Positions 3,434 to 31,600 of a stretch of DNA of 32,295 bases are shown in pieces. Source of the DNA: Candidatus Hydrogenedentota bacterium (GTDB taxonomy: Bacteria > Hydrogenedentota > Hydrogenedentia > Hydrogenedentales > SLHB01). The notes beneath the pieces were generated by a model that had not been told where the DNA came from, did no database searches, and saw nothing but the letters and a program-made list of their open reading frames with translations. Location: contig BTWA01000050.1 of NCBI GenBank assembly GCA_045863295.1, forward strand, positions 1 to 32,295. Reading direction: 5' to 3'. A program made the translations under genes and the position numbers. The stretch's first letter is position 1, and every line of letters begins with the position of its first letter.

Positions 3434-3751
3434 TTAGCTCTTGGCTTTGGCTTTGGCTTTACTCTTGGCCTTCGCTTTGGGCTTTGCTTTGGCCTTCGGC
3501 TTGCTGGCGGCTTTCTTCTTGGGAGCGGCTTCGGCGGCTTCGGCTGTAGCCGATGCGTAGAAATGCTTTCCGGCCTCAAGCATGTTGCCGATGTGGCGCT
3601 TGGTTCCGTCGCTTAGCTCGATACCCTTCTTCTTAATGGTCTCGAGAAGCGATTCCCAATCCTGGTGTTCCCAGGATCCTTTTTGATCGGTGACGAATTT
3701 CTCGACCACCGTGATCACGTCTTTAAGCGTCGTCTTCTTGGCTGGCGGCAT
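3434..3751 (-). CDS. Small basic protein: helical N-terminal domain plus Lys/Ala/Pro histone H1-like tail
   Basis: 105 aa ending AAPKKKAASKPKAKAKPKAKAKSKAKAKAKS. AAGGAGA RBS upstream of the ATG and a terminator downstream. Confidence 0.8.
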   Translation of the reverse strand: MPPAKKTTLKDVITVVEKFVTDQKGSWEHQDWESLLETIKKKGIELSDGTKRHIGNMLEAGKHFYASATAEAAEAAPKKKAASKPKAKAKPKAKAKSKAKAKAKS

Positions 3752-3843
3752 GGTTCCAATCTCCTTCTGCCCGGTTCCTGGAAACGCCCGCTCCCACGAA
3801 AACCCGTCCTTCCCCCCCCACTTGGAACGAGCATCCTACGGAT

Positions 3844-3895
3844 ACCATACAGCAAGTACGCTTCATTTGCAATTGCCGCCGCAGGGTACGAGAAT
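3844..3895. promoter_or_regulatory. Candidate back-to-back sigma70 promoters sharing a palindromic -35
   Basis: TTGCAA at 3867-3872 is self-complementary. Minus strand: N17 then TATGGT (3849-3844). Plus strand: N17 then GAGAAT (3890-3895). Confidence 0.35.
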
Positions 3896-3962
3896 TCGCT
3901 GGTATGGAATTGCGCGACCGCGGAATACATGCATGCCATTGAACGGAGTGCGTAACGTTGCC

Positions 3963-4649: not shown

Positions 4650-4678
4650 TTCCTTCGCATACATTGCGGCGGCTTTAG

Positions 4679-4707
4679 TTGCAGGCTTGCCACGCATAAC
4701 CTACTAT
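4679..4707 (+). promoter_or_regulatory. Candidate sigma70 promoter for a leaderless mRNA
   Basis: TTGCAG (4679-4684)-N17-TACTAT (4702-4707). ATG 4714 lies at the expected +1 and no SD sequence precedes it. Confidence 0.4.
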
Positions 4708-9088: not shown

Positions 9089-10039
9089 TTACGGTACAGA
9101 TGCGAAAAACGCCCAGATGGCTTCGGCGGCATTGATGTCGCGGCTGGTGTTGCCCACGCTTACAAGTTGTTCTAGCACGCTTGTGTACCCGCCGGGCCAC
9201 GTGTGGCCGCCCCCTTCAATCCGGTAAAAGACTACCGGGTGTCCTCCCGGATTCGCCGCGTGGGTTTCCCGAAACACACGGGTGCCGTCCATGGGATCGG
9301 TGTCGGGCAATTCCTCGACTTGGGGAGGCCCGCCGGCATTGTTGATGCCAATCCAATGCGCCACCGAATCGGCAGCGGATTGATACTGCACTTGCATGAA
9401 GGGACCCTGGTTCACGGTGCCTCCCTCCCACGGGAAAAACGGATCGGCCACACCCATCATCATCATCACGGGCAGGGGTTTGACCGGAGCGCAGAACGAA
9501 CCAAACCCTGCAGGCAGAGTGCACGCGACTCCGGCAATGGCCGTTATCCTGTCGCTTAACTCGCATGCCAGCCGGTATGTCATCAGTGCCCCGTTGGACA
9601 TTCCGGCCACAAAAACTTTGTTGGCGTCTAGTGAGTAATCGATGGCCAACTGATCCAGGACCGCAGCGATATAACCCGGGTCGTCTTCACCCGGGCCTTG
9701 CGTCTCATCCGTGGGATCCCCATTCCACACGCGCGAGACCGCATCCGGGTAACAAACCAGAAATCCCTCTCGATCGGCCACGACATCGAAACCGCTTTTG
9801 CGCTGCATGTCAACGCCCGTCAGGCTGAACGGATGCAAAGCAAGCACAACAGGCGTGGGCGTGCCGGGGGTATATGACTCGGGCACGTAAACAAGATACG
9901 TTCGCGTCCTTCCGCCGTGTTCAATCGTGGTCCGCACGGTGCCTTGGGGAAGCTTGGGGCATGCTCCACCCATGCACGCTACCACTATCAGCAGACAAAG
10001 ACCGGCAACACGAACCGGGCGTACCATCCTGCCTTGCAT
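9089..10039 (-). CDS. LpqC/PHB-depolymerase-family alpha/beta hydrolase (esterase), probable lipoprotein
   Basis: RTYLVYVP, VVLALH, AGMSNGA nucleophile elbow, ADPFFPWEGG, GGGHTWPG. Signal peptide ending GGAC. Confidence 0.85.
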   Translation of the reverse strand: MQGRMVRPVRVAGLCLLIVVACMGGACPKLPQGTVRTTIEHGGRTRTYLVYVPESYTPGTPTPVVLALHPFSLTGVDMQRKSGFDVVADREGFLVCYPDAVSRVWNGDPTDETQGPGEDDPGYIAAVLDQLAIDYSLDANKVFVAGMSNGALMTYRLACELSDRITAIAGVACTLPAGFGSFCAPVKPLPVMMMMGVADPFFPWEGGTVNQGPFMQVQYQSAADSVAHWIGINNAGGPPQVEELPDTDPMDGTRVFRETHAANPGGHPVVFYRIEGGGHTWPGGYTSVLEQLVSVGNTSRDINAAEAIWAFFASVP

Positions 10040-10136: not shown

Positions 10137-11084
10137 CTATCGCTGAAATCGCGAGAGGAATTCCCATATGAGCGGCGTGGCTTCAATGTCCTGGCTGGTA
10201 TTGCCGGTGATGCCTTCGCGTAATGACGACCCTTTGCTGCCTGGCCAATCATGGCCGCCCCCCTGAATGCCGTAGAGGATCACTTCGGCGCCGTCTGTGC
10301 CATTAAGGTACGACCGTTTCCAGACACGCGTTCCGTCGGATGGATCGACGTCCGGAAGCCATTCCTCCGGTTGAGGGGCATCGCATGCGTTGAATTGCGC
10401 CCACAAAGCGACAGAATCCTCCACCGAATCCACCATGCCCCGCGGCCTCCCGTTGACGACCACGTTTCCACCCTCCCATGGCACGAGCGGGTCATCCATG
10501 CCGTTGATAAACTGAATGGGCATGGAATTGGCCGGCAGGCAGTTGGGAGTGAGTGCGCTCGGCATATTCCCGATCACAGGCGCCGCCGCTGCAAATACAT
10601 CGGATGCCTCGCACGCAAGCCGAAGAGTCATCATCCCGCCGTTCGACGGTCCGGTGACATAAATTCGGCTGGCATCAATGGACTGCGTCGACGCAAGGTG
10701 TGCTACGAGTGCGCGAATAAATCCGACATCGTCAATGCCGAGCCGTTGCGACTCAATGGCCGGGTCTTCGCGCCCGTCGTTCCAATTGCCCTCAATGGCA
10801 TCCGGGTAGACCGCGATGAATCCCTCGGAAAGTGCAAGAGCGTCAAATCCCACGCCTCTGCCAAACTGAGTGCCGTTGCCACCTCCCCCGTGCAGCCCCA
10901 CAAGCAACGGTACGGGCGCCTTTGTTTGCACAGGCGGTACGTACAACCGGTACGTGCGTACTTGGCCGTCGTGCTGCAACTCGCCATAGGTTACGCCGGG
11001 TGGATCCAGTTCACAACTGCTGGCCAGCATCGCGCTTAACACGCCCACAACCAACGCCAAAGAGCGAAAATCACGGCAAATCAT
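10137..11084 (-). CDS. LpqC/PHB-depolymerase-family esterase, probable lipoprotein
   Basis: LHGGGG, WNDGR, DDVGFI, TGPSNGG, DDPLVPWEGG, GGGHDWPG. Lipobox-like LASSC. AGGAG RBS. Confidence 0.88.
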   Translation of the reverse strand: MICRDFRSLALVVGVLSAMLASSCELDPPGVTYGELQHDGQVRTYRLYVPPVQTKAPVPLLVGLHGGGGNGTQFGRGVGFDALALSEGFIAVYPDAIEGNWNDGREDPAIESQRLGIDDVGFIRALVAHLASTQSIDASRIYVTGPSNGGMMTLRLACEASDVFAAAAPVIGNMPSALTPNCLPANSMPIQFINGMDDPLVPWEGGNVVVNGRPRGMVDSVEDSVALWAQFNACDAPQPEEWLPDVDPSDGTRVWKRSYLNGTDGAEVILYGIQGGGHDWPGSKGSSLREGITGNTSQDIEATPLIWEFLSRFQR

Positions 11085-13322: not shown

Positions 13323-14348
13323 CTACAAATTGAAATGTTCCCGTGCGTATTGATGCATGGCGCGCACATTCTCCGGCCGAGTCCCACGAGGGACCTCGCA
13401 CCCCGCTCCCACAATGTATCCCGGACCCGTCTGGCGATGACACTCCGCAATTGCATCATAAATCGACTGGGGAGTTCCGTCCTTCAGCACGCGAACCGGA
13501 TCAATATTTCCAAGCAAAACCTGACCAGTCGGCATGCACCTTCTTGCCTCGGCCAGCGAGGCCGGATAATCGAGATCGACGATCTCACAGCCGAGTTCAC
13601 CCATTCCCCTTAAAATAGGCGTAGTATTGCCGCAAATATGCAGCCGGACACGTCCGCCCATGGCTTGTAGCCCTTGAACAAGCCGTTTCTCCTCCGGAAG
13701 TACGAATGAATCGTATAGATCTGGTCCGATTAACGATGCCGCGGCATCGCCCACGCCAATCAGATCGGCCCCGGCTTCCAATTGGGCGCGCCCGAACTGC
13801 AGCCCCATTTCGACACAGAATGCCATTAAGTCACGCACAAAAGTCTCGTCTTCATAAAAATCCATCATTAACGTGTTGATGCCGCGCAAATCTGCCGCCT
13901 CGGCGCATGGGCCTTCCACCCACCCCTCAATCAACTTGTCGCCCTGGACGCGATCGTGAAACCGTTCTATCGCACGCACGCGATCGTGCATTCGCCCGCC
14001 GCCCAGTGGGTCGGGAATCTGCAATCCGATCAGTTCCTTCTTTTCTGAAAGACGCGCATGATTCTCGTCCACCGCGGGCGGCTGATTTTCGAAGTACTGT
14101 ATCGCAGCCCCGCAGTCGGCCGCTTCCCGTCCGGGATCGGATATGGCGGAGACGTGGTCCGCATCGTAGTCCTCCGAGAAACGCAATTGGGACTCAACAA
14201 GAACCCGATGATCGGTCGCATACGCGTGATAGGTGACGCCCGCATTGTCCGATGCGAACATCATGGTGATTGGCATAAAAGCAAGCCTAGCCGAAGTGTC
14301 CCCCTGAATTGCGCTCAACACTCTGTCTCGCCCATTTTCATGTGTCAT
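13323..14348 (-). CDS. URO-D superfamily protein, MtaA/CmuA-like methylcobamide methyltransferase
   Basis: EAADCGA, GWVEGPCAEAADLRG, AGADLIGVGDAAAS, LHICG, LGNIDP and GAGCEVP give the HxC...C zinc-ligand pattern of MtaA-type proteins. Confidence 0.85.
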   Translation of the reverse strand: MTHENGRDRVLSAIQGDTSARLAFMPITMMFASDNAGVTYHAYATDHRVLVESQLRFSEDYDADHVSAISDPGREAADCGAAIQYFENQPPAVDENHARLSEKKELIGLQIPDPLGGGRMHDRVRAIERFHDRVQGDKLIEGWVEGPCAEAADLRGINTLMMDFYEDETFVRDLMAFCVEMGLQFGRAQLEAGADLIGVGDAAASLIGPDLYDSFVLPEEKRLVQGLQAMGGRVRLHICGNTTPILRGMGELGCEIVDLDYPASLAEARRCMPTGQVLLGNIDPVRVLKDGTPQSIYDAIAECHRQTGPGYIVGAGCEVPRGTRPENVRAMHQYAREHFNL

Positions 14349-14507
14349 GGCATCGTTTTCCGAGCGTTGGCCCTGCGCTTACCGCACCATCGATCCCCCT
14401 GCGCATCACACTAAACTTCACGCTTGGCAACTTCAATAAGTACCCATAATGGCGTTCCAACGCCGTTGGCCCGAGTCCGCAACGTCAATCCGCGCCTGCT
14501 ACCAGAC

Positions 14508-14536
14508 TTGCAAGAGTCCGGCCGATTTACTACAAT
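14508..14536 (+). promoter_or_regulatory. sigma70-type promoter of the 14563-19435 operon
   Basis: TTGCAA (14508-14513)-N17-TACAAT (14531-14536), 26 nt upstream of ATG 14563. Confidence 0.6.
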
Positions 14537-14562
14537 GATGCTCACCCCCCTTGTAGAAAGCT

Positions 14563-15660
14563 ATGCGCAAAAACGCACACCAGCTTGTCAGCTACATCGC
14601 ACCCGCGGCCCCGGCCACAAGGAGGCCAGCGACCGGCGACGAACCATACCTGCGTCCCGAGATTGGTTTCACACCCAAGTGGTACCGCGACGCGCTGGGC
14701 ATCGATTTCAATGAGCAGTGGCATGCCGATCCCTCTTACCGGCGGGAGAGCATCCTGGCAATGCGGGCTGAGATTCGAAGCCGCTTTCCCCATACGGCCA
14801 TTGGCTCCATCGATCGCCCAGATTCTCCTCTTGATCTGCTGACAGGGGCATACGGCGCCTGCACCATCGCCGCCATATATGGCTTGCCCATACGCTTTCA
14901 TAGCGACAATTGGCCTGTAGCGGAAATCGTTCCGCTTACCGATGATGAACTGGAGCGACTGCAACCGCCCAATCTGGAATCCAATCCATTTTTTCTATCA
15001 CTTCTCGACCAAATGGATTGGATTGAGCGGAAAGAAGGCTGCATCAATGGCTTCATCAATTGGCAGGGAGTGCTGAACAATGCCCACCGGTTGCGCGGTG
15101 AACAACTGTTTCTCGACTTATTGATGGATCCCGAACGCTGCAGACATCTGTTCCAGTGCGTAGCGACGACCATGATCGATGCAGCTAAAATTGTTCATGC
15201 CCGCCAGCGTGCAACCGGTGTGTCCGTCCACTTTTTCACAGTAAGCAATTGCCTGGTAAACCTTGTATCACCTGACTTATATGAAACCTTACTGCTGCCT
15301 TTTGATAAGCAAATTTCCGGAGCATTTGAAGGCATCGGCATACACAATTGCGCATGGACTGTGGACCCCTATCTCGGGCATTACGCGTCCGTCCCGGGCG
15401 TTAGTTACATGGACATGGGGCTCGAATCCGATTTTGAGACTGCCCGTGCACTCTTTCCCGAAGCACGCCGTGCGGTCATGTACCGTCCCACCGAATTAGC
15501 CGGCAAATCCGAGGCCGACCTCATGGCAGACATGGAACGAATCGCACGTGAACTTGGGCCATGCGATCTGGTCATGGCGGATATCGAAAGCGGCACACCC
15601 GACGCTCGTGTGCAATGGGTAGTGGACACCTGCCGCCGCATCAGCGAGCGCATGGCATGA
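14563..15660 (+). CDS. Divergent URO-D superfamily protein (candidate substrate:corrinoid methyltransferase)
   Basis: GVLNNAHRLRGEQLFLDLLMDPE, NCLVNLVSPDLYE, GIHNCAW. Stop overlaps the next ATG (ATGA). Confidence 0.75.
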   Translation: MRKNAHQLVSYIAPAAPATRRPATGDEPYLRPEIGFTPKWYRDALGIDFNEQWHADPSYRRESILAMRAEIRSRFPHTAIGSIDRPDSPLDLLTGAYGACTIAAIYGLPIRFHSDNWPVAEIVPLTDDELERLQPPNLESNPFFLSLLDQMDWIERKEGCINGFINWQGVLNNAHRLRGEQLFLDLLMDPERCRHLFQCVATTMIDAAKIVHARQRATGVSVHFFTVSNCLVNLVSPDLYETLLLPFDKQISGAFEGIGIHNCAWTVDPYLGHYASVPGVSYMDMGLESDFETARALFPEARRAVMYRPTELAGKSEADLMADMERIARELGPCDLVMADIESGTPDARVQWVVDTCRRISERMA

Positions 15661-16652
15661 CGCCTCGAGATCAAATGATTGCCGCGTTGGAACGCCGCCC
15701 AATCACAGGGCGTGTGCCTCACTTTGAATTGGTCTTCTTTCTAACGATGCAAGCTTTTGGAAAAGTGCATCCACTCCATCGAAATTACAGCCAGTGGTGG
15801 CAAATGACCGATCATGAGAGACAACTGCACCGAATCGACATGGCGGACGTATTCATACAAACCGCCCGCCGGTACGAACACAACGCCATCTTTCTACATC
15901 CCGTACCTTATTCGGAAGATGAGGAAGTTCGCATGATCGACCTCGTCCGTGAAAAAACCGGCGATAATTACTTCTTAATGGTACACGGCGACGTCACCTA
16001 CGAAATACCGACCGGCGAAGACATGATGGCCTGGACGGCGTGGGTGTGCGAGAATATGGACGAAGCAAAACGGACAGCCGAAGCACGCGTGAATAAAAAA
16101 CTGGCTCAGGCTGAACGATTGGCCCGGCATGGTGGACTGGACGGCTTTGCACTTTGTGCGGACTACTGTTTCAACAACAATCCGTTCCTCAGTCCAGACA
16201 TGTTTGGTGAACTGGTGGCCCCTTTCCTGACTCGACTTTGTGAGGGAATGCGGGATCTCGGCTTTTATGTGATCAAACACACCGACGGCAACATCATGCC
16301 AATTATCGATCAAATTGTCGCGGCAAGGCCCCATGCATTGCACTCACTGGACCCGCAAGGCGGGGTGGACATCGCTGAAGTCAAGCGGCGTTTTGGCCAC
16401 CAGGTCTGTCTTATAGGAAATGTGAACTGCGGTTTGCTGAATTCAGGTACCGAAGAAGAAGTCATCGAGTCCGCGCGCTACTGCATTCGTCATGGTATGC
16501 CCGGCGGCGGTTACGTATTTTCGACCAGCAACTGCGCCTATACGGGTCTTCCACTGGAGCGATATGAACTCATGTGGAAGATATGGCACGACGAGGCCAT
16601 CTACCCGAGTCAACCCCTAACCAGAGCCACACACCATGAACTCCATTTGTGA
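15657..16652 (+). CDS. URO-D superfamily protein
   Basis: MTPRDQMIAALE, ADYCFNNNPFLSPDMF, IKHTDGNI, SLDPQGGVD, LIGNVNC, GGGYVFSTSNC. Start ATG 15657 is coupled to the upstream stop. Confidence 0.85.
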   Translation: MTPRDQMIAALERRPITGRVPHFELVFFLTMQAFGKVHPLHRNYSQWWQMTDHERQLHRIDMADVFIQTARRYEHNAIFLHPVPYSEDEEVRMIDLVREKTGDNYFLMVHGDVTYEIPTGEDMMAWTAWVCENMDEAKRTAEARVNKKLAQAERLARHGGLDGFALCADYCFNNNPFLSPDMFGELVAPFLTRLCEGMRDLGFYVIKHTDGNIMPIIDQIVAARPHALHSLDPQGGVDIAEVKRRFGHQVCLIGNVNCGLLNSGTEEEVIESARYCIRHGMPGGGYVFSTSNCAYTGLPLERYELMWKIWHDEAIYPSQPLTRATHHELHL

Positions 16653-17529
16653 CGACATTCGAACGCGGGGACCATTAGTCAGCGATGGCGGGTGGGGGAC
16701 ACTCCTCATCGCCGCTGGACTACAGCCCTCGGAGTGCCCCGAGGAATGGAATTGGAGCCACCCAGAACTGGTCAGTGATATTGCCAGACAATATTTCGAT
16801 GCCGGTGCTGACATCGTAACCACCAACAGTTTTGGCGGCTCCCGTTTCAAATTGGCTCACTACCATCTTCAATCACGCGTCGCGGAATTGAATGCGCGGG
16901 CCGCGGAGCTGTCGCGCTTGGCCGCCGGGCCCAATCGGCACGTCATGGCATCCATCGGTCCGACAGGGAAGATTCTGATGATGGGTGACGTAACGGAAGA
17001 AGAGATCTATGACGCTTTTCGCGAACAACTCGTCGCGCTCGAAAAAGGTGGCGCAGACGCATGTTGCATAGAAACCATGACCGCCATTGACGAGGCAGCC
17101 CTCGCAGTCCGGGCGGCAAAAGAGAATACTGCGTTGGAAATCATTTGCACGTTTACCTATGAACGCAAACTGGACGACACGTACCGCACAATGATGGGGG
17201 TATCGCCTGCTGAAATGGCCCACGCGGTCATCGCCGAAGGCGCAAGCATAGTCGGTACCAATTGCAGCCACGGCCCGGCCGCTATGGTCGAAATCGTGGC
17301 CGCATTGCATCAAGCCTCTCCGGATGTCCCTATTCTCGTGCAACCGAATGCCGGTGCGCCCATTCAGAGTGATTCCGGCATTGGTTATCTGGAGACGCCC
17401 GAATCCATGGCAGCTTTTGTGCAATCGTTTCTTCAGGCCGGGGCTTCCATTATCGGCGGTTGTTGCGGCACTACACCGCAGCATATCGCTGCCATCGCCC
17501 GTGCTCTGCAGGATCTACGTTCTAAGTAA
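16636..17529 (+). CDS. Stand-alone homocysteine S-methyltransferase domain (MetH N-terminal-like)
   Basis: VSDGGWGT, AGADIVTTNSFG, ASIGPTG, IETM, GTNCS, QPNAG, IIGGCCGTTP (three Zn-binding Cys). 297 aa with no pterin or B12 domain. Confidence 0.9.
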   Translation: MNSICDDIRTRGPLVSDGGWGTLLIAAGLQPSECPEEWNWSHPELVSDIARQYFDAGADIVTTNSFGGSRFKLAHYHLQSRVAELNARAAELSRLAAGPNRHVMASIGPTGKILMMGDVTEEEIYDAFREQLVALEKGGADACCIETMTAIDEAALAVRAAKENTALEIICTFTYERKLDDTYRTMMGVSPAEMAHAVIAEGASIVGTNCSHGPAAMVEIVAALHQASPDVPILVQPNAGAPIQSDSGIGYLETPESMAAFVQSFLQAGASIIGGCCGTTPQHIAAIARALQDLRSK

Positions 17530-17575
17530 TATCGTTGTGCCCACGCATGGGGCACGGAAAGCCAAGTTGCGACGC

Positions 17576-19435
17576 ATGGGAGACTCGACTGTTACCATTC
17601 GCTTCTTGCCCGGAGGCCAATCCATCGAGGTGCCGACGGGAACGCCGCTTCGCGACGCTGCGTCATTGGCCGGGATCGCGATGGAATATCCTTGCGCAGG
17701 CCTGGGCAACTGTGGCAAGTGCGTGGTTTCAATTCAGGGTAATGGCGGTCCTCTTACGGATTCCGAGTGGGCGTTGCTGGGCCATGAAGAATCTGAAAAG
17801 CAATACCGTTTGGCATGTCAGGCCTTTGCATTGTCGTCAATGGAAGTCGAGGTTGCCGATGGGGCGCTGTTGCCCGCCAGGTACCAGGTCCTAACCCATT
17901 CTACCGTGCAGTTCTCTGCCGCACCGGACCCACCACTTCGCAAATGCGTGGTTTCACTGCCACCACCGACTCTCGAGGACGATCTACCTGACGCCGCACG
18001 CCTTGCCCGATCGGCCGGACCGTTCGAGGCCGACCCCGAAACCCTGGACCATTTGGGTAAGGTGCTCCGCGAATGCAACTGGGCAGGCACCGCGGTTTTC
18101 GCCGGCGGGCGATTGGTTAACTTTGGACCCGCAAATCCACCCGTGCGCACTTGCGTCGTCGCGTTCGATATCGGCACCACAACACTGGCGGGCCGCTTAA
18201 TCGAATTACCGGACGGATCAGTGCTCGCAGAGGCATCAAGCCTGAATCCGCAGGTGGCCTACGGGGCCGACATCCTATCGCGTATAACCTACGGGGATCA
18301 GAGTACCGATTCGCTCCATCGGCTTCGGCAGGAAGTCATCGCCGCCATCAATGAACTCATAGACGATATGACCACGGCCGCGCAACTGGATTCCCATTTA
18401 ATTTATGCGGCCACTTTTGCGGGCAACACCGTTATGCAGCACATTCTGGCAGGGCTCGACCCTTCTAACATCGGCGTAACACCTTTTGTCCCCATCACGG
18501 CTGAGGCCATCGAATTAAGTGCCGAGGCGCTTTCCCTGCAGATTCACCCCAAAGCGGTATGCTACATATTCCCGGTAATCGCAGGTTACGTGGGTGGTGA
18601 TACCATTGCCGGCTTGCTCGCCTCCGGGTTTGCCGCCGATCAATCCCCTGCCCTGTTCATTGATATCGGAACAAATGGCGAAATGGTCGCTCGAAACGGA
18701 GGTAAGCTCCTCGCAACGTCGTGCGCTGCCGGACCAGCGTTCGAAGGATCGGGCATAGTTTGTGGTATGCGTGCATCGGAAGCGGCCATCGAAGCGGTTC
18801 GCCTCGAGGGTGATGTGCACTATAAGACAATTGCCAACCGTCCTCCCCGGGGAATCTGCGGCTCCGGCTTGATTGATCTCGTGGCGGAGCTTCTGCGCAC
18901 AGGGTTGCTCGATCCCACGGGAATACTGCTCGATCAGAACACACTACCCAGCGATACGCCGCAGGCGCTGGCGCAGCGGCTTCTGATGCTCAACGGCGAA
19001 ACAGCATTTGTTGTGGCGCACGGATCGGAGACACGTCACGGAAAACCCGTTTATGTCCTGCAGAGCGACATTCGCCAACTTCAGTTGGCGACCGCTGCGG
19101 TGCGAAGCGGTGTGACTATCCTCCTGCGGCATGCGGGACTTCACGAAAAAGACCTGAAAAGCGTGCTGGTTGCAGGTGCATTCGGAAACTACATTCGGCC
19201 GCACAATGCGCAACGCATAGGACTTTTGCCCAGTTCCGTTAATACAAACCGAATTCAATTCGGCGGCAATACGGCCCTCGCTGGAGCGCACGTAGCTGCA
19301 CTCTCGCTGCGATCGCGTCAGCAGGCCAGAGCTTTGGCCCGCACCGTCCGCCATGTAGATTTGTCATTAGACCCGGCATTTCAAGACGTCTTCGTGGAAT
19401 CGCTGTTCTTTCCCAATTCGGATAGGTGGGCATAA
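17576..19435 (+). CDS. ASKHA-family ATP-dependent corrinoid reductive activator (RACo/RamA-like) with N-terminal [2Fe-2S]
   Basis: CAGLGNCGKC...RLACQ, FDIGTTT, NPQVAYGADILSRI, GYVGGD, IDIGTNGE, AAGPAFEG, GICGSG, DIRQLQLA, AGAFG. Likely start ATG 17576. Confidence 0.92.
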   Translation: MGDSTVTIRFLPGGQSIEVPTGTPLRDAASLAGIAMEYPCAGLGNCGKCVVSIQGNGGPLTDSEWALLGHEESEKQYRLACQAFALSSMEVEVADGALLPARYQVLTHSTVQFSAAPDPPLRKCVVSLPPPTLEDDLPDAARLARSAGPFEADPETLDHLGKVLRECNWAGTAVFAGGRLVNFGPANPPVRTCVVAFDIGTTTLAGRLIELPDGSVLAEASSLNPQVAYGADILSRITYGDQSTDSLHRLRQEVIAAINELIDDMTTAAQLDSHLIYAATFAGNTVMQHILAGLDPSNIGVTPFVPITAEAIELSAEALSLQIHPKAVCYIFPVIAGYVGGDTIAGLLASGFAADQSPALFIDIGTNGEMVARNGGKLLATSCAAGPAFEGSGIVCGMRASEAAIEAVRLEGDVHYKTIANRPPRGICGSGLIDLVAELLRTGLLDPTGILLDQNTLPSDTPQALAQRLLMLNGETAFVVAHGSETRHGKPVYVLQSDIRQLQLATAAVRSGVTILLRHAGLHEKDLKSVLVAGAFGNYIRPHNAQRIGLLPSSVNTNRIQFGGNTALAGAHVAALSLRSRQQARALARTVRHVDLSLDPAFQDVFVESLFFPNSDRWA

Positions 19436-19436
19436 A

Positions 19437-20465
19437 TCAATACGTTGTGGATCCCCACGCTTCGTAGACAGCCGCAATATTCTCCGCCGGATCCGCGGTA
19501 CCCCATTCGCACTGGGCGATGAGCCCTCCTCGGCCGTCGTCAAACGCCCTGCGCACACGGCACACAGCCCGGTGCACGTCGGCCACCGTGCCAAAAGGCA
19601 GTACCGACTGCCGGCATATTTCTCCCCAAAACGTCATCCGGCCTTTGAAACGTTGTGCCAAGCCCTCGATATCCATGCAGAAGAGCTGCGTATTTATTGC
19701 ATCCACGCCTATCTCCAGGAAATCATCCATAATTGATTCGACGTTTCCATCGGTATGAAAAAAAACATATTTGCCGGCGGCTTTAATGGTATCGCAATAC
19801 TCGCGATACAACGGTTTAAAAACGCGCCGCCATAATTCGGGATCGACAAGAAGGTGATTTTGCGACCCCCAATCGTCAATAAAGGCTATGGCATCCACTT
19901 TGGTTCTTGCCCACAGCCGGATCTCATGAAGAAAGAACTCATGTACCAGATCGCGCAACCGGAAAAAGTCGGAACTCAGCAGCGCCAGGTCCAGGTAGGT
20001 GTTCTCTGTACCCCGTAAGAACTGCATGCGCTCAAAAAGGCGAACGCAGGTACTTGCACGCACGAACAAGTCTGTTGTTTCGCACTGGCGGTTAATTCCC
20101 GCGAAATCAATGCCCTCGAAGAGTTCCCAAGGCGCTTCAAATGCTGAATGCGCATCCCAGCCGATCAATGGATGGCCTTTCACTTCTCCCACGACGCCTT
20201 CCTCGGCAACGGTCCAGACACACCCCCATTCGTCGGTATAGTTACCAATCGTGTTCGGTACGCCAGCGGTCCGTTTGCCGGTGGCATACGGAAGCGGAGG
20301 CACCCAGAAATCCATGGGGTAGCGCGTAACCAGTTCCTCTAATTCCTTCTTGCGAAGCGCGGGAACGCCGGGCAAATGCCAAAGCTCACGCGGCGCACGA
20401 TCCGGATAGTTAAATTGTAAGCAACGTATTACTCGCTCACGCGATGTCACGGTCGGTCCCCCCAT
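19437..20465 (-). CDS. URO-D superfamily protein (methyltransferase-like)
   Basis: TSRERVIRCL..PDRAP, TDEWGCVW, FERMQFLRG, DDWGSQ, FFHTDGNV, FWGEICRQ..LPFGT, IAQCEWG. Start is ATG 20465 or GTG 20450. Confidence 0.85.
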   Translation of the reverse strand: MGGPTVTSRERVIRCLQFNYPDRAPRELWHLPGVPALRKKELEELVTRYPMDFWVPPLPYATGKRTAGVPNTIGNYTDEWGCVWTVAEEGVVGEVKGHPLIGWDAHSAFEAPWELFEGIDFAGINRQCETTDLFVRASTCVRLFERMQFLRGTENTYLDLALLSSDFFRLRDLVHEFFLHEIRLWARTKVDAIAFIDDWGSQNHLLVDPELWRRVFKPLYREYCDTIKAAGKYVFFHTDGNVESIMDDFLEIGVDAINTQLFCMDIEGLAQRFKGRMTFWGEICRQSVLPFGTVADVHRAVCRVRRAFDDGRGGLIAQCEWGTADPAENIAAVYEAWGSTTY

Positions 20466-20592
20466 TCCCCGGATTCTATGGTACGTCCAGGGAAGATGGG
20501 GCGCAACTCCCACCCTTTGGTGTACAATAAGTATGACAAGCGGGGCGTACGCTTGGGGGATACGCGCCCACGCAAATTGTAGAGGGGGAGCC

Positions 20593-21258
20593 ATGTCTGA
20601 AATTCTCGAACAAATCGCCGTCGCCATTGAACGGGGCAAGGTCAACAAAGATGCCTCGTATCCGCCCGACATGAAAGGCATGGACGGCACGGATGAATTG
20701 ACTCGCACAGCCCTGGCCATGGGCATTGCCTCGGGCGACGTACTGACTCAGGGCCTTATCGAAGGCATGACGCGCATCGGAAAACGCTATAGCGATGGAA
20801 AGGCGTTTGTTCCAGATCTCCTGATGGCGTCGAAAGCCATGAAGGCCGCCATGGCTCACCTGAAGCCGTACTTTGAATCCGGCCAGGCGCAACACCGCGG
20901 CACATTCGTAATTGGCACAGTGCAAGGAGATCTCCACGACATCGGCAAGAACCTGGTCGCGATGATGCTTGAAGGCAGCGGTTATAAAGTCATTGATCTC
21001 GGCGTTGACGTCTCCGCTGAAAAGTTTGTTAAGGCGGCCCAGGATAACCCGGGTTGCATCGTGGGTCTAAGTGCGCTGCTTACGACCACTATGGTGAACA
21101 TGGACAAGATCATCAAGGAGTTGAAGTCGGCGTGCCCGGATACCCGCGTGATCGTCGGCGGCGCGCCGCTTACGTTGGAGTTTGCCCGGAAGATCGAAGC
21201 CGATGCCTATGCCCCCGATCCTCACGGCGCGTTGGAATACCTGGCCTCTGTATCCTAA
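20593..21258 (+). CDS. Stand-alone corrinoid (B12-binding) protein, MtaC/MtbC/MetH-cap-like
   Basis: Cap domain (GLIEGM..IG..Y..GKAFVPDLLMASKAM), then GTVQGDLHDIGKNLV (DxHxxG), SALLTTT, VGGAP. GGGGGAG RBS. Confidence 0.93.
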   Translation: MSEILEQIAVAIERGKVNKDASYPPDMKGMDGTDELTRTALAMGIASGDVLTQGLIEGMTRIGKRYSDGKAFVPDLLMASKAMKAAMAHLKPYFESGQAQHRGTFVIGTVQGDLHDIGKNLVAMMLEGSGYKVIDLGVDVSAEKFVKAAQDNPGCIVGLSALLTTTMVNMDKIIKELKSACPDTRVIVGGAPLTLEFARKIEADAYAPDPHGALEYLASVS

Positions 21259-22517
21259 TAGGCACGGCACTCGCTAAACGTTTCGTAAAGCGCGAGCAGG
21301 TTTTCCGTGGGCACGCCTGCCTGCACGTTATGTATGGGGTTGAATACAAAGCCGCCGCCCGGACGAAAGATTGCAATCCGTTCGCGTACTTCGGCGCGCA
21401 CTTCGTCCGGCGTTCCGAACGGCAGTGTGTGCTGCGTATCCACGGCGCCGCCCCAGAATACGGCCCGGCTGCCAAATCCGGCTTTTAACTCACGAGGGTC
21501 CATGTGTGCGGCAGAGCACTGAACGGGATTTAGTATGTCGTACTCCGCTTCGAGAAAATCGTCGTAAAATACACGCACGGATCCACACGAATGGATAAAA
21601 GTCTTCCACGACGTGTTCTCATGAATCCAATGGTTCAGGCGTGACTGGAACGGCTTGTACAGATCGCGCAACACATCGGGCGAAATGAAGGGACCATGCT
21701 GTGCGCCAAAATCGGCGCCCGACATGAACACTACGTCCACAAGATCGCCCAGAATGGCCGCAATTCGCTTTAAATTGCCAAGTGCAATCTCGCATTGCCG
21801 GTAAAATATTTCATAAATATGGTCGCGCCGGGTGAGTGTGCTTGTATACCATTCGGTCATGTCGCGAATACCCTTCGGGTGTTTCAGCCACATTCCCGGC
21901 ACAAGCGCGATATCGCCAAAGGCCGTGCCTCCAAAGTTGCCCAACACCGCCAGCCCCGTAGATCGAAGTCGCGTTGCTTCCGCCTCAAAATGGCGCAAGG
22001 CAGCATCTGTGACAGGCGGAAATTCTTCCAGGTTATCGTGGATGTTCAACACTGCGTCATCGATGGGATCCTGCCGGACGATCGTGTCGAAATAATACCC
22101 GCCGTGAGGCATACGGCCGCTGGGAGCAGCGGACTTGTCGCCTCCGGGATACATGAGAATGTCGCCATTTGATTCAGGTTCGGTGTTGAATTCCCCCGGT
22201 ACCAGAACTGGCGTGCCATCAAATAACCGCCATTCTTTCCATCGTTCATTTCGAAAACCGAAAAGATTCTCCGGCGGACCGAACCCGACAACGTCCACAC
22301 CAAGTGCTTCCATCAAATCGGGTGCGATCTCACCCAACATCTGATACGGTTCGACCACCTTGACAGGCGTCCCTGGAGGGTCCAGAGTCAATGCCTGCCT
22401 GAGCTTGTATACGGAACTCACCTGCATACCGGTCACACCGCTTGATCCCAAATCCAGCGGAATGAGGTCCGGTTCGCGGTGGTTCAGTGTCTGCAGCACG
22501 CGTTCGCGCGAAGTCAT
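21255..22517 (-). CDS. URO-D superfamily protein (methyltransferase-like)
   Basis: MTSRERVLQTLNHREPDLIPLDLG, GADFGAQ..PFISP, FIHSCGS, LNPVQCSA, FWGGAVDTQHTLPFGT, GGGFVFNPIHNVQ. Start ATG 22517. Confidence 0.88.
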   Translation of the reverse strand: MTSRERVLQTLNHREPDLIPLDLGSSGVTGMQVSSVYKLRQALTLDPPGTPVKVVEPYQMLGEIAPDLMEALGVDVVGFGPPENLFGFRNERWKEWRLFDGTPVLVPGEFNTEPESNGDILMYPGGDKSAAPSGRMPHGGYYFDTIVRQDPIDDAVLNIHDNLEEFPPVTDAALRHFEAEATRLRSTGLAVLGNFGGTAFGDIALVPGMWLKHPKGIRDMTEWYTSTLTRRDHIYEIFYRQCEIALGNLKRIAAILGDLVDVVFMSGADFGAQHGPFISPDVLRDLYKPFQSRLNHWIHENTSWKTFIHSCGSVRVFYDDFLEAEYDILNPVQCSAAHMDPRELKAGFGSRAVFWGGAVDTQHTLPFGTPDEVRAEVRERIAIFRPGGGFVFNPIHNVQAGVPTENLLALYETFSECRAY

Positions 22518-23022: not shown

Positions 23023-23988
23023 TTAGTAGCCAGCTTCCTGACGACGGAACCTGGACAGAAACTCCCAAATCACCTGGGAGGCATTGATGTCTTGTGTATT
23101 GTTGCCGGTGAACAGTTCGCGTATGGGCGAATTGAAGTGGCTCGGCCAATCGTGGCCCCCGCCATGAATAGCATAAAGAACGACCTCTGCACCATCGGTG
23201 CCGTGCAAATACTCCCGCTTCCAGATCTGAGTGCCATCGTTCGCATCGACATCGGGTAGCCACACATCGGGCAGCGCGGCGTCGCATGCATTATGTTGCG
23301 CCCAGAACGCCACCGACTTGTCGACCGACTCCACCCGGCCTCGGTATACACCCAACAAGTAGATATACCCCCCCGCATACGGCACGATGGGATCCGACAT
23401 GCCATTGATAAACTGTATGGGCATGGGATGCGCCGGCTTGCACTGAGGGATTAGGTCCATGGGCATATTGCCCATTACGGGTGCGGCCGCCGCGAATACG
23501 TCTGACGCTTCGCAGGCCAACCGCAAAGCCATCATGCCGCCATTCGAAATTCCCGTTATGTACACACGAGTTGGATCGATCGGATACGTGTCGATCAGCT
23601 TCTCCACGAGAGCACGAATGAAGTCAACGTCATCAATGCCAAGGTACTGCGAGGGCACAGCCGGATCGTGTCGCCCGTCTCCCCAGTTCCCCTCTATGGC
23701 ATCGGGACACGCAAAGATGAAATGGTTCGCATCGGCGATCATATCGAATCCGGTTTCCGACGCAAATTGGACCGACGTATTCGAACTGCCGTGCAAACCA
23801 ATCAATAATGGAACGGTGTCCTCGCTCTTCAATGCATAAGGCAGGTAAAGACGGTAGGAACGGATAAGACCTTCGTGAATCATCACGCCGTGCTGGGCGC
23901 CTATCTTGTCGGCGCTGCAACCGGCGCCCGTCAGCGTCAACACAACGAGAATCGCGGCGACGCCAAGCCTAACTTCACTACGGCCCAT
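23023..23988 (-). CDS. LpqC/PHB-depolymerase-family esterase, probable lipoprotein
   Basis: LIGLHG, WGDGR, DDVDFI, TGISNGG, SDPIVPYAGG, GGGHDWP. Lipobox-like GAGC. GGGGAG RBS before ATG 23988. Close paralog of 10137..11084. Confidence 0.88.
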   Translation of the reverse strand: MGRSEVRLGVAAILVVLTLTGAGCSADKIGAQHGVMIHEGLIRSYRLYLPYALKSEDTVPLLIGLHGSSNTSVQFASETGFDMIADANHFIFACPDAIEGNWGDGRHDPAVPSQYLGIDDVDFIRALVEKLIDTYPIDPTRVYITGISNGGMMALRLACEASDVFAAAAPVMGNMPMDLIPQCKPAHPMPIQFINGMSDPIVPYAGGYIYLLGVYRGRVESVDKSVAFWAQHNACDAALPDVWLPDVDANDGTQIWKREYLHGTDGAEVVLYAIHGGGHDWPSHFNSPIRELFTGNNTQDINASQVIWEFLSRFRRQEAGY

Positions 23989-24127
23989 GGGCGGGAACTC
24001 CCCTGAGAACATCCAGGAATCCAGGCGACTGCCCCAGCATACAACAAGCTCCACGAGAAGCGCCAGCATCGACAAAAAATGCCCGCGGCAAACGAATGTT
24101 CGCGTGCCGCGGGCGTAGGACAATCTT

Positions 24128-28433: not shown

Positions 28434-28458
28434 CTGGAAGTGCCGATGGCACTTCCAG
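28434..28458. other. Perfect 11-bp hairpin abutting a GGAGG sequence
   Basis: CTGGAAGTGCC-gat-GGCACTTCCAG, with GGAGG at 28459-28463. Confidence 0.7.
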
Positions 28459-28601
28459 GGAGGACGTACGTACAGCATGCGACATGTGTTTGTAGCAACA
28501 AGAATTCAAGGACAAAGCTCTTTGGATTCCATACTATCTTGTTCATACCATGTCTGGCTGTCGCCGGCTATTGTATCTTCACAGTTCGTACAGTGCACTG
28601 T

Positions 28602-31600
28602 ATGATAGAAACTGAATTAGATACCAAACGCGACCTAGAGTCTGGCTTGCCCAAGAAAATCGCTGCGTACGCTCTCATATTGGTTTCATTTACCTCGTTT
28701 CATTCATTCGCGGATCCCACCTACCGCTTCGAACGCACGTGGCCAACTTTGCAGCAGCCTTGGTATTTCGCGAGGGCGTCCGGTGTTGTCGTAGATGATT
28801 CGGGTATTGTCTACATACTTGAAACGAACAATTCTCGCATCCAGAAGTTTGACGGAAATGGCATCCTTCTTTCCAGATGGGGAAGTCAAGGGACAGCGGA
28901 CGGGATGTTTCAACAACCTCGGGGAATTGCCTTGGACCGTGACGGCAATATTCTCGTTTCCGACACATTCAATAGCCGAGTACAAAAATTTGATCCTAAT
29001 GGTAAGTTTCTTGGGAAATGGGGAAAGCAGGGTGCGGGGGCGGGTCTGTTTCTCCTCCCAAAAGGAATAGCGACCGGCAAGGAGGGCGCCGTATTTGTAG
29101 TCGATAGCGGAAACGATCGAATTCAAAAATTTGACAGCGATGGTGCATTTATCACTATGTGGGGCAGTACCGGAGCAAGTGATGGGCAGTTTGAGTTCCC
29201 TGATGGTATTGCGGTTGATAGTACTGGCACGATCTATGTGGTGGATATGGGCAATAGCCGAATCCAGAAGTTTGACGAGAATGGAAACTTTCTTGGCAAA
29301 TGGGGGACGTTTGGATCTGGCCAAGGCCAGTTTGTGATTCCGGCGGCAATCACTGTTGGTGACACCGGGGTTGTTTGTGTCAGCGACCATCTACGAATAC
29401 AGAGGTTCGACCCGAGTGGCGCATTCCTGAGCGAGTTCAAAGATTATGTTTCCGATGGATACCTTTGGCGCATTTCGCCAGAAGGTCTTTTTTTGGACAA
29501 GACCAGCTGTCTTTACGCGGTGCAGGGAGGATGGGTGTGGAAATTTGTCACCGAGGATCGTCCCCAGACGCGGTGGGAAGCGTCGGGATGGAGAGGAGGT
29601 GAATTTCTTAATCCTTACGGGATTACCGCTGATGACATTGGAAATGTATATGTAGTCGATTCGGGCATGGGACGAATCCAAAAGTTCGACGCGAATGGAA
29701 ATTTCTTGCTGAAGTGGGGAACAACTGGATCTGGAAATGGACAATTCTTTCTACCGGAAGCCGCGGCATTCGATTCAAGCAACAATCTCTATGTTGCCGA
29801 TACGTATTCTCACCGGATTCAGAAGTTTACTCAGGAGGGCGTGTTTCTGGGTAAATGGGGTAGTCAGGGTGTTGGAGATGGACAGTTTGATCGTCCAACC
29901 GGTATTGCAGTTGACGCATCAGGAAATGTGTATGTCGCTGACTCCAACAACGACCGTATTCAGAAGTTTACCGGCGACGGTCTGTTCATAGAAAAATGGG
30001 GCACAACAGGTTCGGCTGATGGACAATTAAATAACCCAACGAGTGTGGCACTGGATTCGGTTGGACATGTATTTGTCTCTGATACTTCCAACAACAGAAT
30101 TCAAAAGTTTGATGAGCATGGAGTGTACTTGGGCAAGTGGGGAAGTTTTGGAAGTAGCGACGGCAAGTTCTTGTATGACTTTAGAATTACTATAAGTGAT
30201 GAAGACCTCTTGTATGCGATGGATAGTCAATCGGGCAGGGTTCAGATTTTCGATTTAAGTGGCACATTCATTCAAAAATGGGGGAGTTACGGCTCAAGTA
30301 CTGGACAGTTTAGCTCCGCATTTGGAATTGCTGTCGCACCCAATGGTGATGTATATGTCGCAGACACATTTAACCATCGTGTTCAGAAGTTTGCCGCGAT
30401 TGAATTGGAGAAGGATTCGAAAGCGGTTGTGGTCGCTGGGGGCGGACCATATCTTGGCAACAACTTGTGGGACTCCACACAAGCCTCAGCAAATTTTGCG
30501 TATCGCGCATTGAGTCATCAAGGCTTTGGAAAGAGTTCAATTTACTATCTATCCTCTGATACTCAGTTGGACCTAGACGAAAATGGTGTTGCCGATGATG
30601 TGGATGGAGAAGCGACCCTGACAAACCTGCAGTACGCTTTGAACGTATGGGCTCCGTCAGAGTTGAATGGCGTGCCGACGGGCGATGTGGTGGTCTATCT
30701 AGTGGATCACGGAGGCCCGGGCACATTACGCATGAGCGGGACGGAGACTCTGGATGCTTCTGTTTTTGCATCTTGGTGCAACACGTTGCAAGCAAACATT
30801 CAGGGCAAGCTCACGGTGGTGTACGACGCCTGTGAATCCGGGACATTTGTATCAGCGCTCAGCGCGCCTGTGTTTGCCGGCAGCCGTTTAGTGCTTACCA
30901 GTACGTCGCCTGGTGAAGAGGCCTACTTTGTTACGACCGGTACGATATCGTTCTCGAATTATTTTTGGACGCAGGTGTTTAATGGCGCAACAGTGGGTGA
31001 GGCCTTCGACATTGCGAACGCCGCCATGAGTCAGACGTTTCAGTTTCAGCATCCGTTGCTAGACGATAACGCGAACGGGCAAGGCAATGACGGTGGGGAT
31101 GGCGCGCTCGCCGCACTCACTCATATCGGCAATGGCACGCAGCAACACTGGACGGGTCCGGTAATTGGCGGCGTGTCGCCGGTGCAGAATCTAGATGGTA
31201 CAGCGACGTCAACGTTATGGGCAGACCCAGTGACCGATGCGGATGGTGTGGCGCGTGTGTGGGCAATCGTGCGATCGCCAAATGGTCAATCTGCGTCGTC
31301 TGGGACACCTGTTACTGGCATGCCGAGTGTGGATTTCAGTCCGGTGAGTGGAAACAGGTGGGAAGCGAACTATAGTGGATTTACGTCTGAAGGTACATAT
31401 ACCGTACTGGTCTACGCGCGTGATCGAATAGGTAATACATCTGCGCCTGAAGCAACGGAGGTGATAGTCAGTAATCCCTTGTCCAGGAAGGTTCTTATAG
31501 TTGCAGGAGGTGATCCAAGCTCCATTATTTGGCCGGTCTACGAAAAGACCGCTCAGTGGGCATACAGCGGTCTCATTTCACAGGGGTATGGCGACGAGAC

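Follow-up and report, generated by a model that had tools for sequence, protein, structure and literature searches.

The 32,295-nt contig BTWA01000050.1 from assembly GCA_045863295.1 of a Candidatus Hydrogenedentota bacterium (the whole stretch analysed, called the window below) carries between positions 13,323 and 22,517 a gene cluster that appears to specify a modular corrinoid methyl-transfer system with homocysteine as the methyl acceptor. This reading, in which transfer steps, donors, and physiological role are deduced from the gene content, is given a probability of about 0.6. The cluster combines five genes for proteins of the uroporphyrinogen decarboxylase (URO-D) fold, designated UroD1, X2, UroD3, UroD4, and UroD5, with genes for one corrinoid protein (the carrier), one RACo-type activase, and one stand-alone homocysteine methyltransferase (the Hcy enzyme).

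The gene list (Table 1) is based on an open reading frame (ORF) table and on Pfam matches of the window's 22 main ORFs; several of the longest ORFs begin too early, and starts were refitted from profile alignments and orthologues. The inventory given in a first-pass annotation, which had been made from the letters and their ORFs, was confirmed throughout. Four of the five predicted URO-D-superfamily genes pass the PF01208 threshold, and X2 joins them by its relatives, hhalign, and a structure model. The single DxHxxG corrinoid protein contains both B12 domains and the motif DLHDIG, the proposed ASKHA [2Fe-2S] activator is a RACo protein with Fer2 and three RACo domains, and the stand-alone Zn-dependent Hcy domain matches PF02574 and possesses three zinc cysteines. 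A pterin-binding methyltransferase II (MT-II) is, as had been stated, not present among the 22 main ORFs according to the Pfam scan. The tight operon proposed for the Hcy gene, two URO-D genes, and the activator gene is borne out by the ORF table and the orthologue-fitted starts. From 14563 to 19435, X2, UroD3, Hcy, and RACo follow each other with a 4-base overlap of the UroD3 start with the X2 stop, a 17-base overlap, and a 46-base gap. A 214-base interval separates this operon from the divergently oriented UroD1, and the genes for UroD4 and the carrier are divergent from each other. In sludge metagenomes, short contigs identical to the window were detected in four runs of four studies. Since these contigs span the UroD3/Hcy junction at 16636-16652 as well as the 5' ends of X2 and RACo, the assembly is supported.

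The distribution of the parts was determined in 60 other genomes of the phylum (genomes, contigs, and loci are cited by our labels G, C, and L, with G000 for the source genome). These genomes are kin, and the counts are meant as a pattern, with no statistical test attached. A stand-alone carrier of this type is present in 48 genomes, all of which also contain a stand-alone Hcy enzyme. Seven genomes lack the stand-alone Hcy enzyme, and none of these has the carrier. URO-D matches range from one to at least 28 per genome across the sample and from three to at least 28 in carrier-bearing genomes; six of the seven genomes without the Hcy enzyme have one or two, the exception being G023 with 23. 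Thus, the conserved co-occurrence of Hcy, corrinoid, and URO-D genes, on which the first-pass annotation had made its proposal depend, was found to be strong, also with regard to synteny in G005 and G047. In these two genomes, the seven-gene core of UroD1, X2, UroD3, Hcy, RACo, UroD4, and carrier recurs in other gene orders with 49-77% identity (L109 and L100, respectively). Five of the parts recur in the closed one-contig genome G022 (L108), in which a MetH-type activation domain replaces RACo. Close stand-alone Hcy genes were found in 40 genomes of the phylum, with a corrinoid gene at a distance of no more than 6 kb in 20 of them. Among 80 public loci gathered with the Hcy protein, from Hydrogenedentota, many Bacteroidota (Prolixibacteraceae, Paludibacter, and others), and Nitrospiraceae-labelled and other metagenome-assembled genomes (MAGs), 46 have a gene for a corrinoid protein of 215-235 amino acids (aa) within 10 kb, often together with URO-D genes.

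Most of the 60 genomes contain the stand-alone Hcy gene alongside MetH. In G025 (100% complete), G034, and G001, neither a long MetH nor a match to the MetE family was detected, but orthologues of the Hcy enzyme and of the carrier are present, together with a stand-alone pterin protein. No methionine synthase other than the split parts is visible in these three genomes, and this is the best available evidence that the Hcy enzyme works with the carrier. In a Hydrogenedentes MAG (L018/L104), two URO-D genes are followed by genes for the carrier, a MetH activation domain, the Hcy enzyme, and MtaB, which places a known methanol-activating methyltransferase I (MT-I) in the same relay. The common form in Bacteroidota consists of the carrier, a URO-D protein fused to a thioredoxin-like domain, and the Hcy enzyme, with a CobW-type GTPase before or after Hcy. 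By tblastn, MtaB, a stand-alone MetH activation domain, and a CobW-type GTPase, all present in related clusters, were not found in the source genome.

Among solved structures, the Hcy protein is closest to the Hcy domain of MetH from T. maritima (1q7m, E 1e-42), and matches to BHMT (E 1e-16) and to HMT 5dml (E 1.8e-10) are much weaker. The zinc cysteines C210, C276, and C277 are conserved without exception in 43 relatives. Judged from the best 120 of 7830 longer homologues, the closest longer relatives are MetH proteins of about 800 aa from anaerobes with 43-47% identity, while identity to the source genome's own MetH is only 32%. Nearly all of these 120 are MetH proteins of that size and one is of the YitJ type; fusions of Hcy to URO-D or to pterin-less B12 domains are not among them, an absence of little weight. 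The protein is therefore proposed, on the grounds of its sequence, to be a methyl-corrinoid:homocysteine methyltransferase forming the exit of the relay. It could instead be corrinoid-independent, an S-methylmethionine- or S-adenosylmethionine (SAM)-dependent enzyme of the MmuM/YitJ type that merely lies inside a corrinoid operon. The best NCBIfam match is indeed to the N-terminal half of YitJ-type bifunctional enzymes (E 6.4e-76), and many stand-alone Hcy copies are without a corrinoid neighbour. Yet the closeness to MetH far exceeds that to HMT, and the scores for PRK09485 (MmuM; 102.9 bits versus a cut-off of 215) and PRK07534 (242.9 versus 338) are below threshold. Furthermore, the translational overlap binds the Hcy gene to its operon, all 48 genomes with the carrier also have the Hcy enzyme, and in three genomes the Hcy enzyme belongs to the sole candidate methionine synthase. 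A corrinoid-independent Hcy enzyme is thus considered very improbable.

The carrier, a protein of 221 aa, is composed of a B12 cap domain and a Rossmann domain, and all 35 aligned relatives share its DLHDIG motif. Its closest solved proteins are the Moorella corrinoid protein 1y80, MttC (7xcn), and CobDH of an O-demethylase (4jgi). The activase matches the AcsV type of NCBIfam (E 2.7e-123), although it remains under the cut-off. For the pair of carrier and Hcy enzyme, a complex was predicted with a score of 0.36, compared to 0.00 for the best of three controls; three runs share at least 86% of the contacts, and the predicted local distance difference test (pLDDT) of the partner is 89 or higher. 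Of 157 solved complexes, 116 passed at this mark, as did two of 215 mismatched pairs; with scores of 0.60 or less, only 18 of the 157 solved complexes passed, together with both of these mismatches. The predicted complex lends weak support to the pairing. Solved MetH structures exist, and the pass may therefore reflect likeness to them alone.

The source assembly consists of 88 contigs, with a completeness of 96%. When the whole genome was searched in six frames for PF00809, a FolP-like gene on C5 and MetH on C2 were the only matches and no other pterin-binding domain was obtained; MtrH (PF02007) was not found. A pterin-binding MT-II elsewhere in the genome as the actual partner of the carrier, named in the first-pass annotation as an outcome that would speak against it, was therefore not detected. 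Stand-alone pterin MT-II proteins were also missing from the syntenic genomes G005 and G047 and from the closed genome G022. According to tblastn, the activase of the window is the only RACo of the genome, and a search with B12-binding_2 identified the carrier as its only methyl-transfer corrinoid protein besides MetH. A further B12-binding_2 match on C48 was rejected as a carrier, as it belongs to a CarH-like MerR regulator beside carotenoid genes instead. The MetH of the source genome is a complete five-domain protein of 1249 aa. The split methionine synthase of the earlier proposal therefore has to be modified: the association of Hcy enzyme and carrier is conserved, but a complete MetH is retained, and the cluster would provide an additional route to methionine.

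It has also been considered that a methyl-tetrahydrofolate methyltransferase has gone unrecognised among the divergent URO-D proteins, which would turn the cluster into a second split, folate-dependent methionine synthase or into a folate-linked demethylase. Kountz and Balskus raise an unrecognised folate enzyme for pterin-less clusters (PMC10418091), split MetH systems do exist (PMC12478193), and dependence on split parts is seen in three of the sampled genomes, as mentioned above. Relatives that need a folate module, however, carry a recognisable Pterin_bind protein, and a full MetH is already available in the source genome. In addition, folate binding is not known for any URO-D-fold enzyme, and this explanation is regarded as very unlikely.

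Of the five URO-D-fold proteins, X2 alone does not reach the PF01208 threshold (E 0.0012; 18.4 bits versus a cut-off of 23.9). A phmmer search with X2 yielded 534 representatives at E<=0.001, from which 59 full-length members were aligned; 41 of these match PF01208, the best with E 3.8e-19. Comparison of the X2 and UroD5 families by hhalign gave a probability of 96.6% (E 6e-10). The AlphaFold (AF2) model of X2 has a mean pLDDT of 95.4, and in a Foldseek comparison it was most similar to uroporphyrinogen decarboxylases and MtaA 4ay7, with E-values of 4e-10 to 7.5e-10 and template modelling (TM) scores of 0.59-0.67. By family comparison and model, X2 is a URO-D-fold protein, and the count of five such genes is right. 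C230 and H261 of X2 are invariant among the aligned relatives, and orthologues occur in 24 of the 60 genomes. UroD3 shows a weak match to CdmB 9rui (E 0.005); its orthologues in L100 and L109, with 72-77% identity, retain KHTDGN and SNC. UroD4 orthologues with 55-62% identity are located beside the corrinoid gene in seven loci and retain FFH(T/S)DG and AQCEWG. In UroD5, His309, Cys311, and His396 are invariant. The UroD5 family is very large (at least 8000 proteins), and no solved structure was matched by its sequence profile. Identities of 67-72% are maintained across Hydrogenedentota, Anaerolineae, and Planctomycetota, an unusually strong conservation for an uncharacterised enzyme. An obligate pair of X2 and UroD1 was considered and dismissed, as the two genes are adjacent in only six of the 24 genomes with both, the source genome included.

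The zinc sites allow a first classification of these proteins. According to Kountz and Balskus (PMC10418091), S-methyltransferases of the superfamily carry His-Cys-Cys, whereas O-methyltransferases have one or both cysteines swapped for carboxylates or non-ligands. In X2, UroD3, UroD4, and UroD5, Asp or His replaces a Cys zinc ligand, and by the published rule these four would be of the O-type and UroD1 of the S-type. Several URO-D enzymes acting as MT-I on one shared carrier had been predicted in the first-pass annotation. Four O-type sites fit this prediction, but UroD1 with its MtaA-like His-x-Cys...Cys site stands apart as a more probable thiol or thioether methyltransferase.

UroD1 can be aligned to MtaA 4ay7 with conservation of LHICGN and the later Cys, and the motif is kept in orthologues of 65-69% identity. 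Its NCBIfam scores are all below the cut-offs (mtaA_cmuA 141.8 versus 235.4; MtbA 109.4 versus 600; MtaA 97.5 versus 400). The gene is single-copy and was detected at E<=1e-50 in 42 of the 60 genomes. From its active site, UroD1 probably acts on a thiol or a methylthio (thioether) compound, in either direction. It might therefore provide the main exit of the relay, passing methyl groups to another thiol (for example, from sulfide or methanethiol to methanethiol or dimethyl sulfide), and the Hcy enzyme would then be a minor anabolic branch. The complete His-x-Cys...Cys site of coenzyme M methyltransferases, conserved in the orthologues, is in line with this possibility, as are its single copy and wide occurrence, which resemble those of a core part, and the absence of UroD1 from all ten genomes without the carrier and with no more than two URO-D matches. 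Some anaerobes that O-demethylate methoxylated aromatics can methylate sulfide, and a volatile product of UroD1 would solve the problem of a sufficient methyl sink. On the other hand, UroD1 was not found at E<=1e-50 in 18 of the 60 genomes, several of which contain carrier and Hcy enzyme (G002, G011, G034, G036, and G050), in contrast to the constant presence of Hcy with the carrier. UroD1 could equally be a donor-side enzyme for methylthio compounds, and its gene is divergent from the operon. A principal exit through UroD1 is accordingly regarded as unlikely, and homocysteine is preferred as acceptor.

For the homocysteine-dependent system, the following sequence of events is proposed. RACo, with ATP and an electron from its [2Fe-2S] cluster, would bring the cobalt of the carrier to Co(I). 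A substrate-specific zinc enzyme of the URO-D type (X2, UroD3, UroD4, UroD5, or one of two paralogues encoded elsewhere in the genome) would bind a methylated oxygen compound via its zinc, and Co(I) would take over the methyl group, by analogy to the reaction of MtaB with methanol. The methyl-Co(III) carrier would then dock on the Hcy barrel, where zinc-bound homocysteine thiolate would be methylated to methionine. UroD1 probably transfers methyl groups to or from a sulfur compound, using the same carrier. Glycan breakdown would supply the most likely donors, O-methylated sugars such as methyl-rhamnose or methyl-fucose. In this case, a blocking group would be taken off the sugar without oxygen, and the methyl group would be saved as methionine and SAM.

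The preference for methylated sugars derives from the chemistry, in that demethylation of a sugar ether would resemble the action of MtaB on methanol with a zinc-activated oxygen and Co(I) as nucleophile, and from the gene context. Both syntenic clusters are flanked by GH78 rhamnosidases, and a RhaT L-rhamnose-proton symporter and a fucosidase are also found at their borders. The flanks in the window contain three sulfatase-type genes, three CE1-like esterases, a GxGYxYP protein, and a GH20b-domain protein. The two additional URO-D paralogues of the source genome, of 479 and 364 aa, adjoin genes for a GH78 rhamnosidase and a GFO/IDH/MocA oxidoreductase and genes for a GH28 enzyme and a sulfatase, respectively. 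Twelve neighbourhoods of UroD5 orthologues were inspected: an MFS sugar porter is directly adjacent in four, one has a sugar-type ABC system, and malectin, GH94-like, or GH120/CBM6 proteins are encoded in four, one of these also with an MFS porter. Carbohydrate genes are present in eight of the twelve in total; none of the neighbourhoods includes genes for the carrier or Hcy. UroD5 is therefore a candidate MT-I for an imported sugar. For the donors as a whole, gene context and chemistry give methylated sugars about even odds.

Methoxylated phenolics freed by esterases are put at about one in five. Ferulate, vanillate, or syringate would in this case be released by the flanking esterases and replace methylated sugars as donors. 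The characterised bacterial O-demethylases with an MT-I of the URO-D type all act on phenyl methyl ethers (PMC10418091, PMC3727330). Three Esterase_PHB/CE1-like esterases are encoded next to the cluster (9089-10039, 10137-11084, and 23023-24123), and in L121 the Hcy gene adjoins two BD-FAE feruloyl/acetyl esterase genes. On the other side, no gene for aromatic-ring catabolism was seen in any neighbourhood examined, and the recurrent neighbours are rhamnosidases, the rhamnose porter, a fucosidase, MFS sugar porters, and sugar ABC transporters. Aromatic donors are hence the less probable choice, and methylated sugars are favoured.

A number of observations weigh against the proposed system as a whole or against parts of it. 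Concerning the acceptor, 12 of the 60 genomes harbour an extra stand-alone Pterin_bind protein. In G036 it is encoded between a URO-D gene and the carrier orthologue, which makes folate a real acceptor for the carrier family elsewhere. A folate methyltransferase may also have been missed or not recognised in a genome that is 96% complete. With a large flux from donors, homocysteine would be a poor stoichiometric sink, and a cell with a complete MetH does not need this route for methionine. UroD1 is a second possible exit, and the two single-domain MetE-like proteins of the source genome (Table 1) might use methyl-corrinoid too. Concerning the Hcy enzyme, its best NCBIfam match belongs to the YitJ-type enzymes without a corrinoid domain, and roughly half of the loci examined have neither a corrinoid nor a URO-D gene next to Hcy, showing that adjacency is not obligatory. 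Concerning the donors, the assignment to sugars depends on gene neighbours alone, and a role of the three flanking esterases with methoxylated phenolics such as ferulate is equally possible. Moreover, the 14 genes flanking the cluster in the window had no match at E<=1e-20 in 43 loci of the phylum (L099-L141), and the glycan genes around the cluster do not therefore form a conserved unit with it.

Further arrangements of pterin proteins were encountered in the sample. In G057, the pterin protein is encoded between the genes for MTHFR and formate-tetrahydrofolate ligase. A row of pterin MT-II, GH106 rhamnosidase, and URO-D genes, a further pointer to sugars as donors, is present in G025, and in G034 a weakly matching pterin protein follows the carrier and the Hcy enzyme in one operon. 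From gene content, the family of systems has two exits, folate and homocysteine, of which the source genome has only homocysteine, in addition to whatever is done by UroD1. The proposal that an Hcy module takes the place of the folate methyltransferase consequently holds for the source genome, which is devoid of a pterin MT-II, but cannot be extended to the lineage, where 12 of the 60 genomes possess one.

The nearest described system is the split MetH of roseobacters, MtgBCDE of Ruegeria pomeroyi and Phaeobacter inhibens (Mausz et al. 2025, PMC12478193; Price et al. 2018, 2021). Both systems have a stand-alone Hcy subunit of the PF02574 type (MtgE), a RamA/RACo-type activase, and a stand-alone corrinoid protein that serves methionine synthesis together with a substrate-specific demethylase, so that one carrier has several partners. 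In the roseobacters, which are aerobes, the donor enzyme is a glycine betaine methyltransferase of the MttB family, the pterin-binding MtgD is essential and works in both directions, and MtgBCDE is the cell's only MetH. The cluster, in contrast, has donor enzymes of the URO-D fold, no pterin subunit in the genome, and a complete MetH besides it. With regard to the features of a split MetH, the Hcy barrel with three zinc cysteines and the corrinoid module with DxHxxG are present, and the pterin module is absent.

The four-component O-demethylases of acetogens and Desulfitobacterium share with the cluster a zinc-dependent MT-I of the URO-D fold, a small DxHxxG corrinoid protein, and a RACo-type activator. 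Their pterin-binding MT-II transfers the methyl group to tetrahydrofolate, and their substrates are phenyl methyl ethers, whereas in the cluster the homocysteine barrel occupies the position of MT-II and the context points to sugars. Type 1 mlp clusters (Kountz and Balskus 2023, preprint, PMC10418091) likewise contain several URO-D/MtaA-like genes, a corrinoid protein, and a RACE/RACo activase, and are without a folate methyltransferase. It was proposed in the same paper that methyl groups may end in methionine. The Mlp proteins are almost uniformly of the His-Cys-Cys type and were assigned to methyl-sulfur or methyl-selenium compounds, and no Hcy gene is named among the core parts in the accessible text. 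In the cluster, His-Cys-Cys is found in only one of the five URO-D proteins, UroD1, and a PF02574 gene is part of the operon.

With MtaABC of Methanosarcina, the cluster has in common the order of a donor enzyme, a corrinoid protein, and a zinc-dependent thiol methyltransferase, and relatives of the cluster include MtaB. The acceptor in MtaABC is coenzyme M via MtaA, while the thiol enzyme of the operon is a MetH-type homocysteine barrel. Formation of methionine from homocysteine by a methyl-corrinoid protein, and not by methyl-folate, has been described for MesA-MesD (Price et al. 2021, PMC7857596). These are single-domain MetE-type barrels (PF01717), in contrast to the MetH-type barrel (PF02574) of the cluster. 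The task proposed for the cluster, removal of a methyl ether that blocks sugar catabolism, is performed in marine aerobes by a P450 sugar O-demethylase for 6-O-methyl-D-galactose (PMC6292453). The P450 enzyme depends on O2 and releases formaldehyde; the cluster would work without O2, and the methyl group would be retained.

Methyl ethers are found on many glycans of algae, plants, and bacteria and block catabolism of the sugars. The only characterised enzymes for their removal need oxygen (PMC6292453). In a literature search that left most subscription journals outside its reach, no account of anaerobic removal of sugar methyl ethers was found, nor any paper on a system of URO-D, corrinoid, and PF02574 proteins or on corrinoid-dependent demethylation of sugars. 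As far as these searches reach, the cluster is a variant of modular corrinoid methyltransferase systems that is widespread and undescribed in print, with demethylation of glycan sugars under anoxic conditions as its likely role. Together with its many relatives, it represents a concrete and testable candidate for anaerobic sugar demethylation. If the proposal is true, corrinoid methyl-transfer systems can use homocysteine as terminal acceptor, polysaccharide breakdown feeds methionine and SAM directly, and a function could be assigned to thousands of genes now labelled "uroporphyrinogen decarboxylase family protein" or "methyltransferase". A more general idea, held tentatively and with somewhat less than even confidence, is that URO-D corrinoid enzymes form a large, unstudied family of O2-independent sugar O-demethylases, in this phylum with up to 28 or more paralogues per genome, each for the methyl ether of a different glycan sugar (methyl-rhamnose, methyl-fucose, and others), and one carrier feeding homocysteine or folate. 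Such a family would correspond, in anaerobes, to the P450 sugar demethylases, and through it methyl groups of glycans would be transferred directly to methionine.

Table 1 Genes of the methyl-transfer cluster in the window and single-domain MetE-type genes of the source genome (locus coordinates in brackets)
Gene	Position	Strand	Characteristics
UroD1	13323..14348	-	PF01208 E 2.9e-53; MtaA/MtbA-like, His-x-Cys...Cys
X2	14563..15660	+	divergent URO-D fold; His-x-Cys plus Asp; first gene of the operon; candidate MT-I
UroD3	15657..16652 (longest ORF from 15561)	+	PF01208 E 4.9e-19; His-x-Asp...Cys; candidate MT-I
Hcy enzyme	16636..17529	+	S-methyl_trans PF02574 E 7.9e-72; stand-alone MetH-type zinc barrel
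RACo activase	17576..19435	+	Fer2, RACo_linker, Raco_middle, RACo_C_ter
UroD4	19437..20465 (longest ORF to 20726)	-	PF01208 E 7.5e-10; His-x-Asp...Cys; candidate MT-I
Corrinoid carrier	20593..21258	+	B12-binding PF02310 E 1.5e-26; B12-binding_2 PF02607 E 3e-16; DxHxxG
UroD5	21255..22517 (longest ORF to 22553)	-	PF01208 E 1.6e-10; 420 aa; candidate MT-I
MetE-type gene 1	G000:C4:184384-185400 (L154:6361-7431)	-	single domain; Meth_synt_2 E 2e-24; 356 aa
MetE-type gene 2	G000:C3:6814-7722 (L155:5749-6759)	+	single domain; Meth_synt_2 E 4e-23; 336 aa

Regulatory signals gave little information. Rfam models had no match in the window at gathering score and none at E<=1 between 13000 and 23000, so that no clue from a B12 or SAM riboswitch is available. 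A promoter scan yielded fewer promoter-like sites than shuffled controls, and promoters and terminators thus provide no evidence; one promoter-like site is located at 14508-14536, upstream of the operon. The two MetE-type genes of Table 1 could specify core methionine synthases or further methyl-corrinoid enzymes. One of them adjoins genes for a glucuronoyl-esterase-like hydrolase and a 3-keto-disaccharide hydrolase, and G005 also has two single-domain MetE-type genes.

Several observations concern relatives of the cluster. In Hydrogenedentota, the very large expansion of URO-D paralogues is served by one or two carrier proteins. The Bacteroidota cassette is found in L030, L076, L131, L132, and about 25 more loci; its fused URO-D protein has about 540 aa, and FFVCGH replaces the His-x-Cys motif. 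In five small genomes of the genus g22 (L101, L103, L107, L112, and L114), carrier and Hcy genes are about 0.8-0.9 kb apart. In L101, the only annotated one of the five, a DUF169 (COG2043) gene lies in the gap between carrier and Hcy and no URO-D gene is in the neighbourhood. A distant stand-alone Hcy gene (41% identity) in L110 (G003:C24) is within 8 kb of genes for RACo, an AcsE-like pterin protein, and CdhD of CO dehydrogenase/acetyl-CoA synthase, a layout which suggests a link of the Wood-Ljungdahl corrinoid protein with homocysteine. In L023 and L121, Hcy occurs alone within loci for glycan degradation; in L023, it is accompanied by a gene for a MetH activation domain amid genes for a glucuronoyl esterase and for GH141, GH2, and GH31 enzymes, and in L121 by the two BD-FAE esterase genes mentioned above.

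The CarH-like MerR/B12-binding regulator mentioned above (G000:C48:3778-4770; L095) is encoded beside lycopene cyclase and polyprenyl synthetase genes, which suggests light- and B12-dependent control of carotenoid synthesis at this site. Elsewhere in the window, a 319-aa protein with two SOUL haem-binding stretches is encoded at 3690-4649 on the forward strand. It is fully overlapped by an antisense ORF of 324 aa (3723-4697, reverse strand) without a family match, which is probably not a real gene. The window ends within the gene for a giant protein (28440-32294, forward strand, open at the window end) with seven NHL repeats, other beta-propeller matches, and a peptidase C13 (legumain-like) domain.

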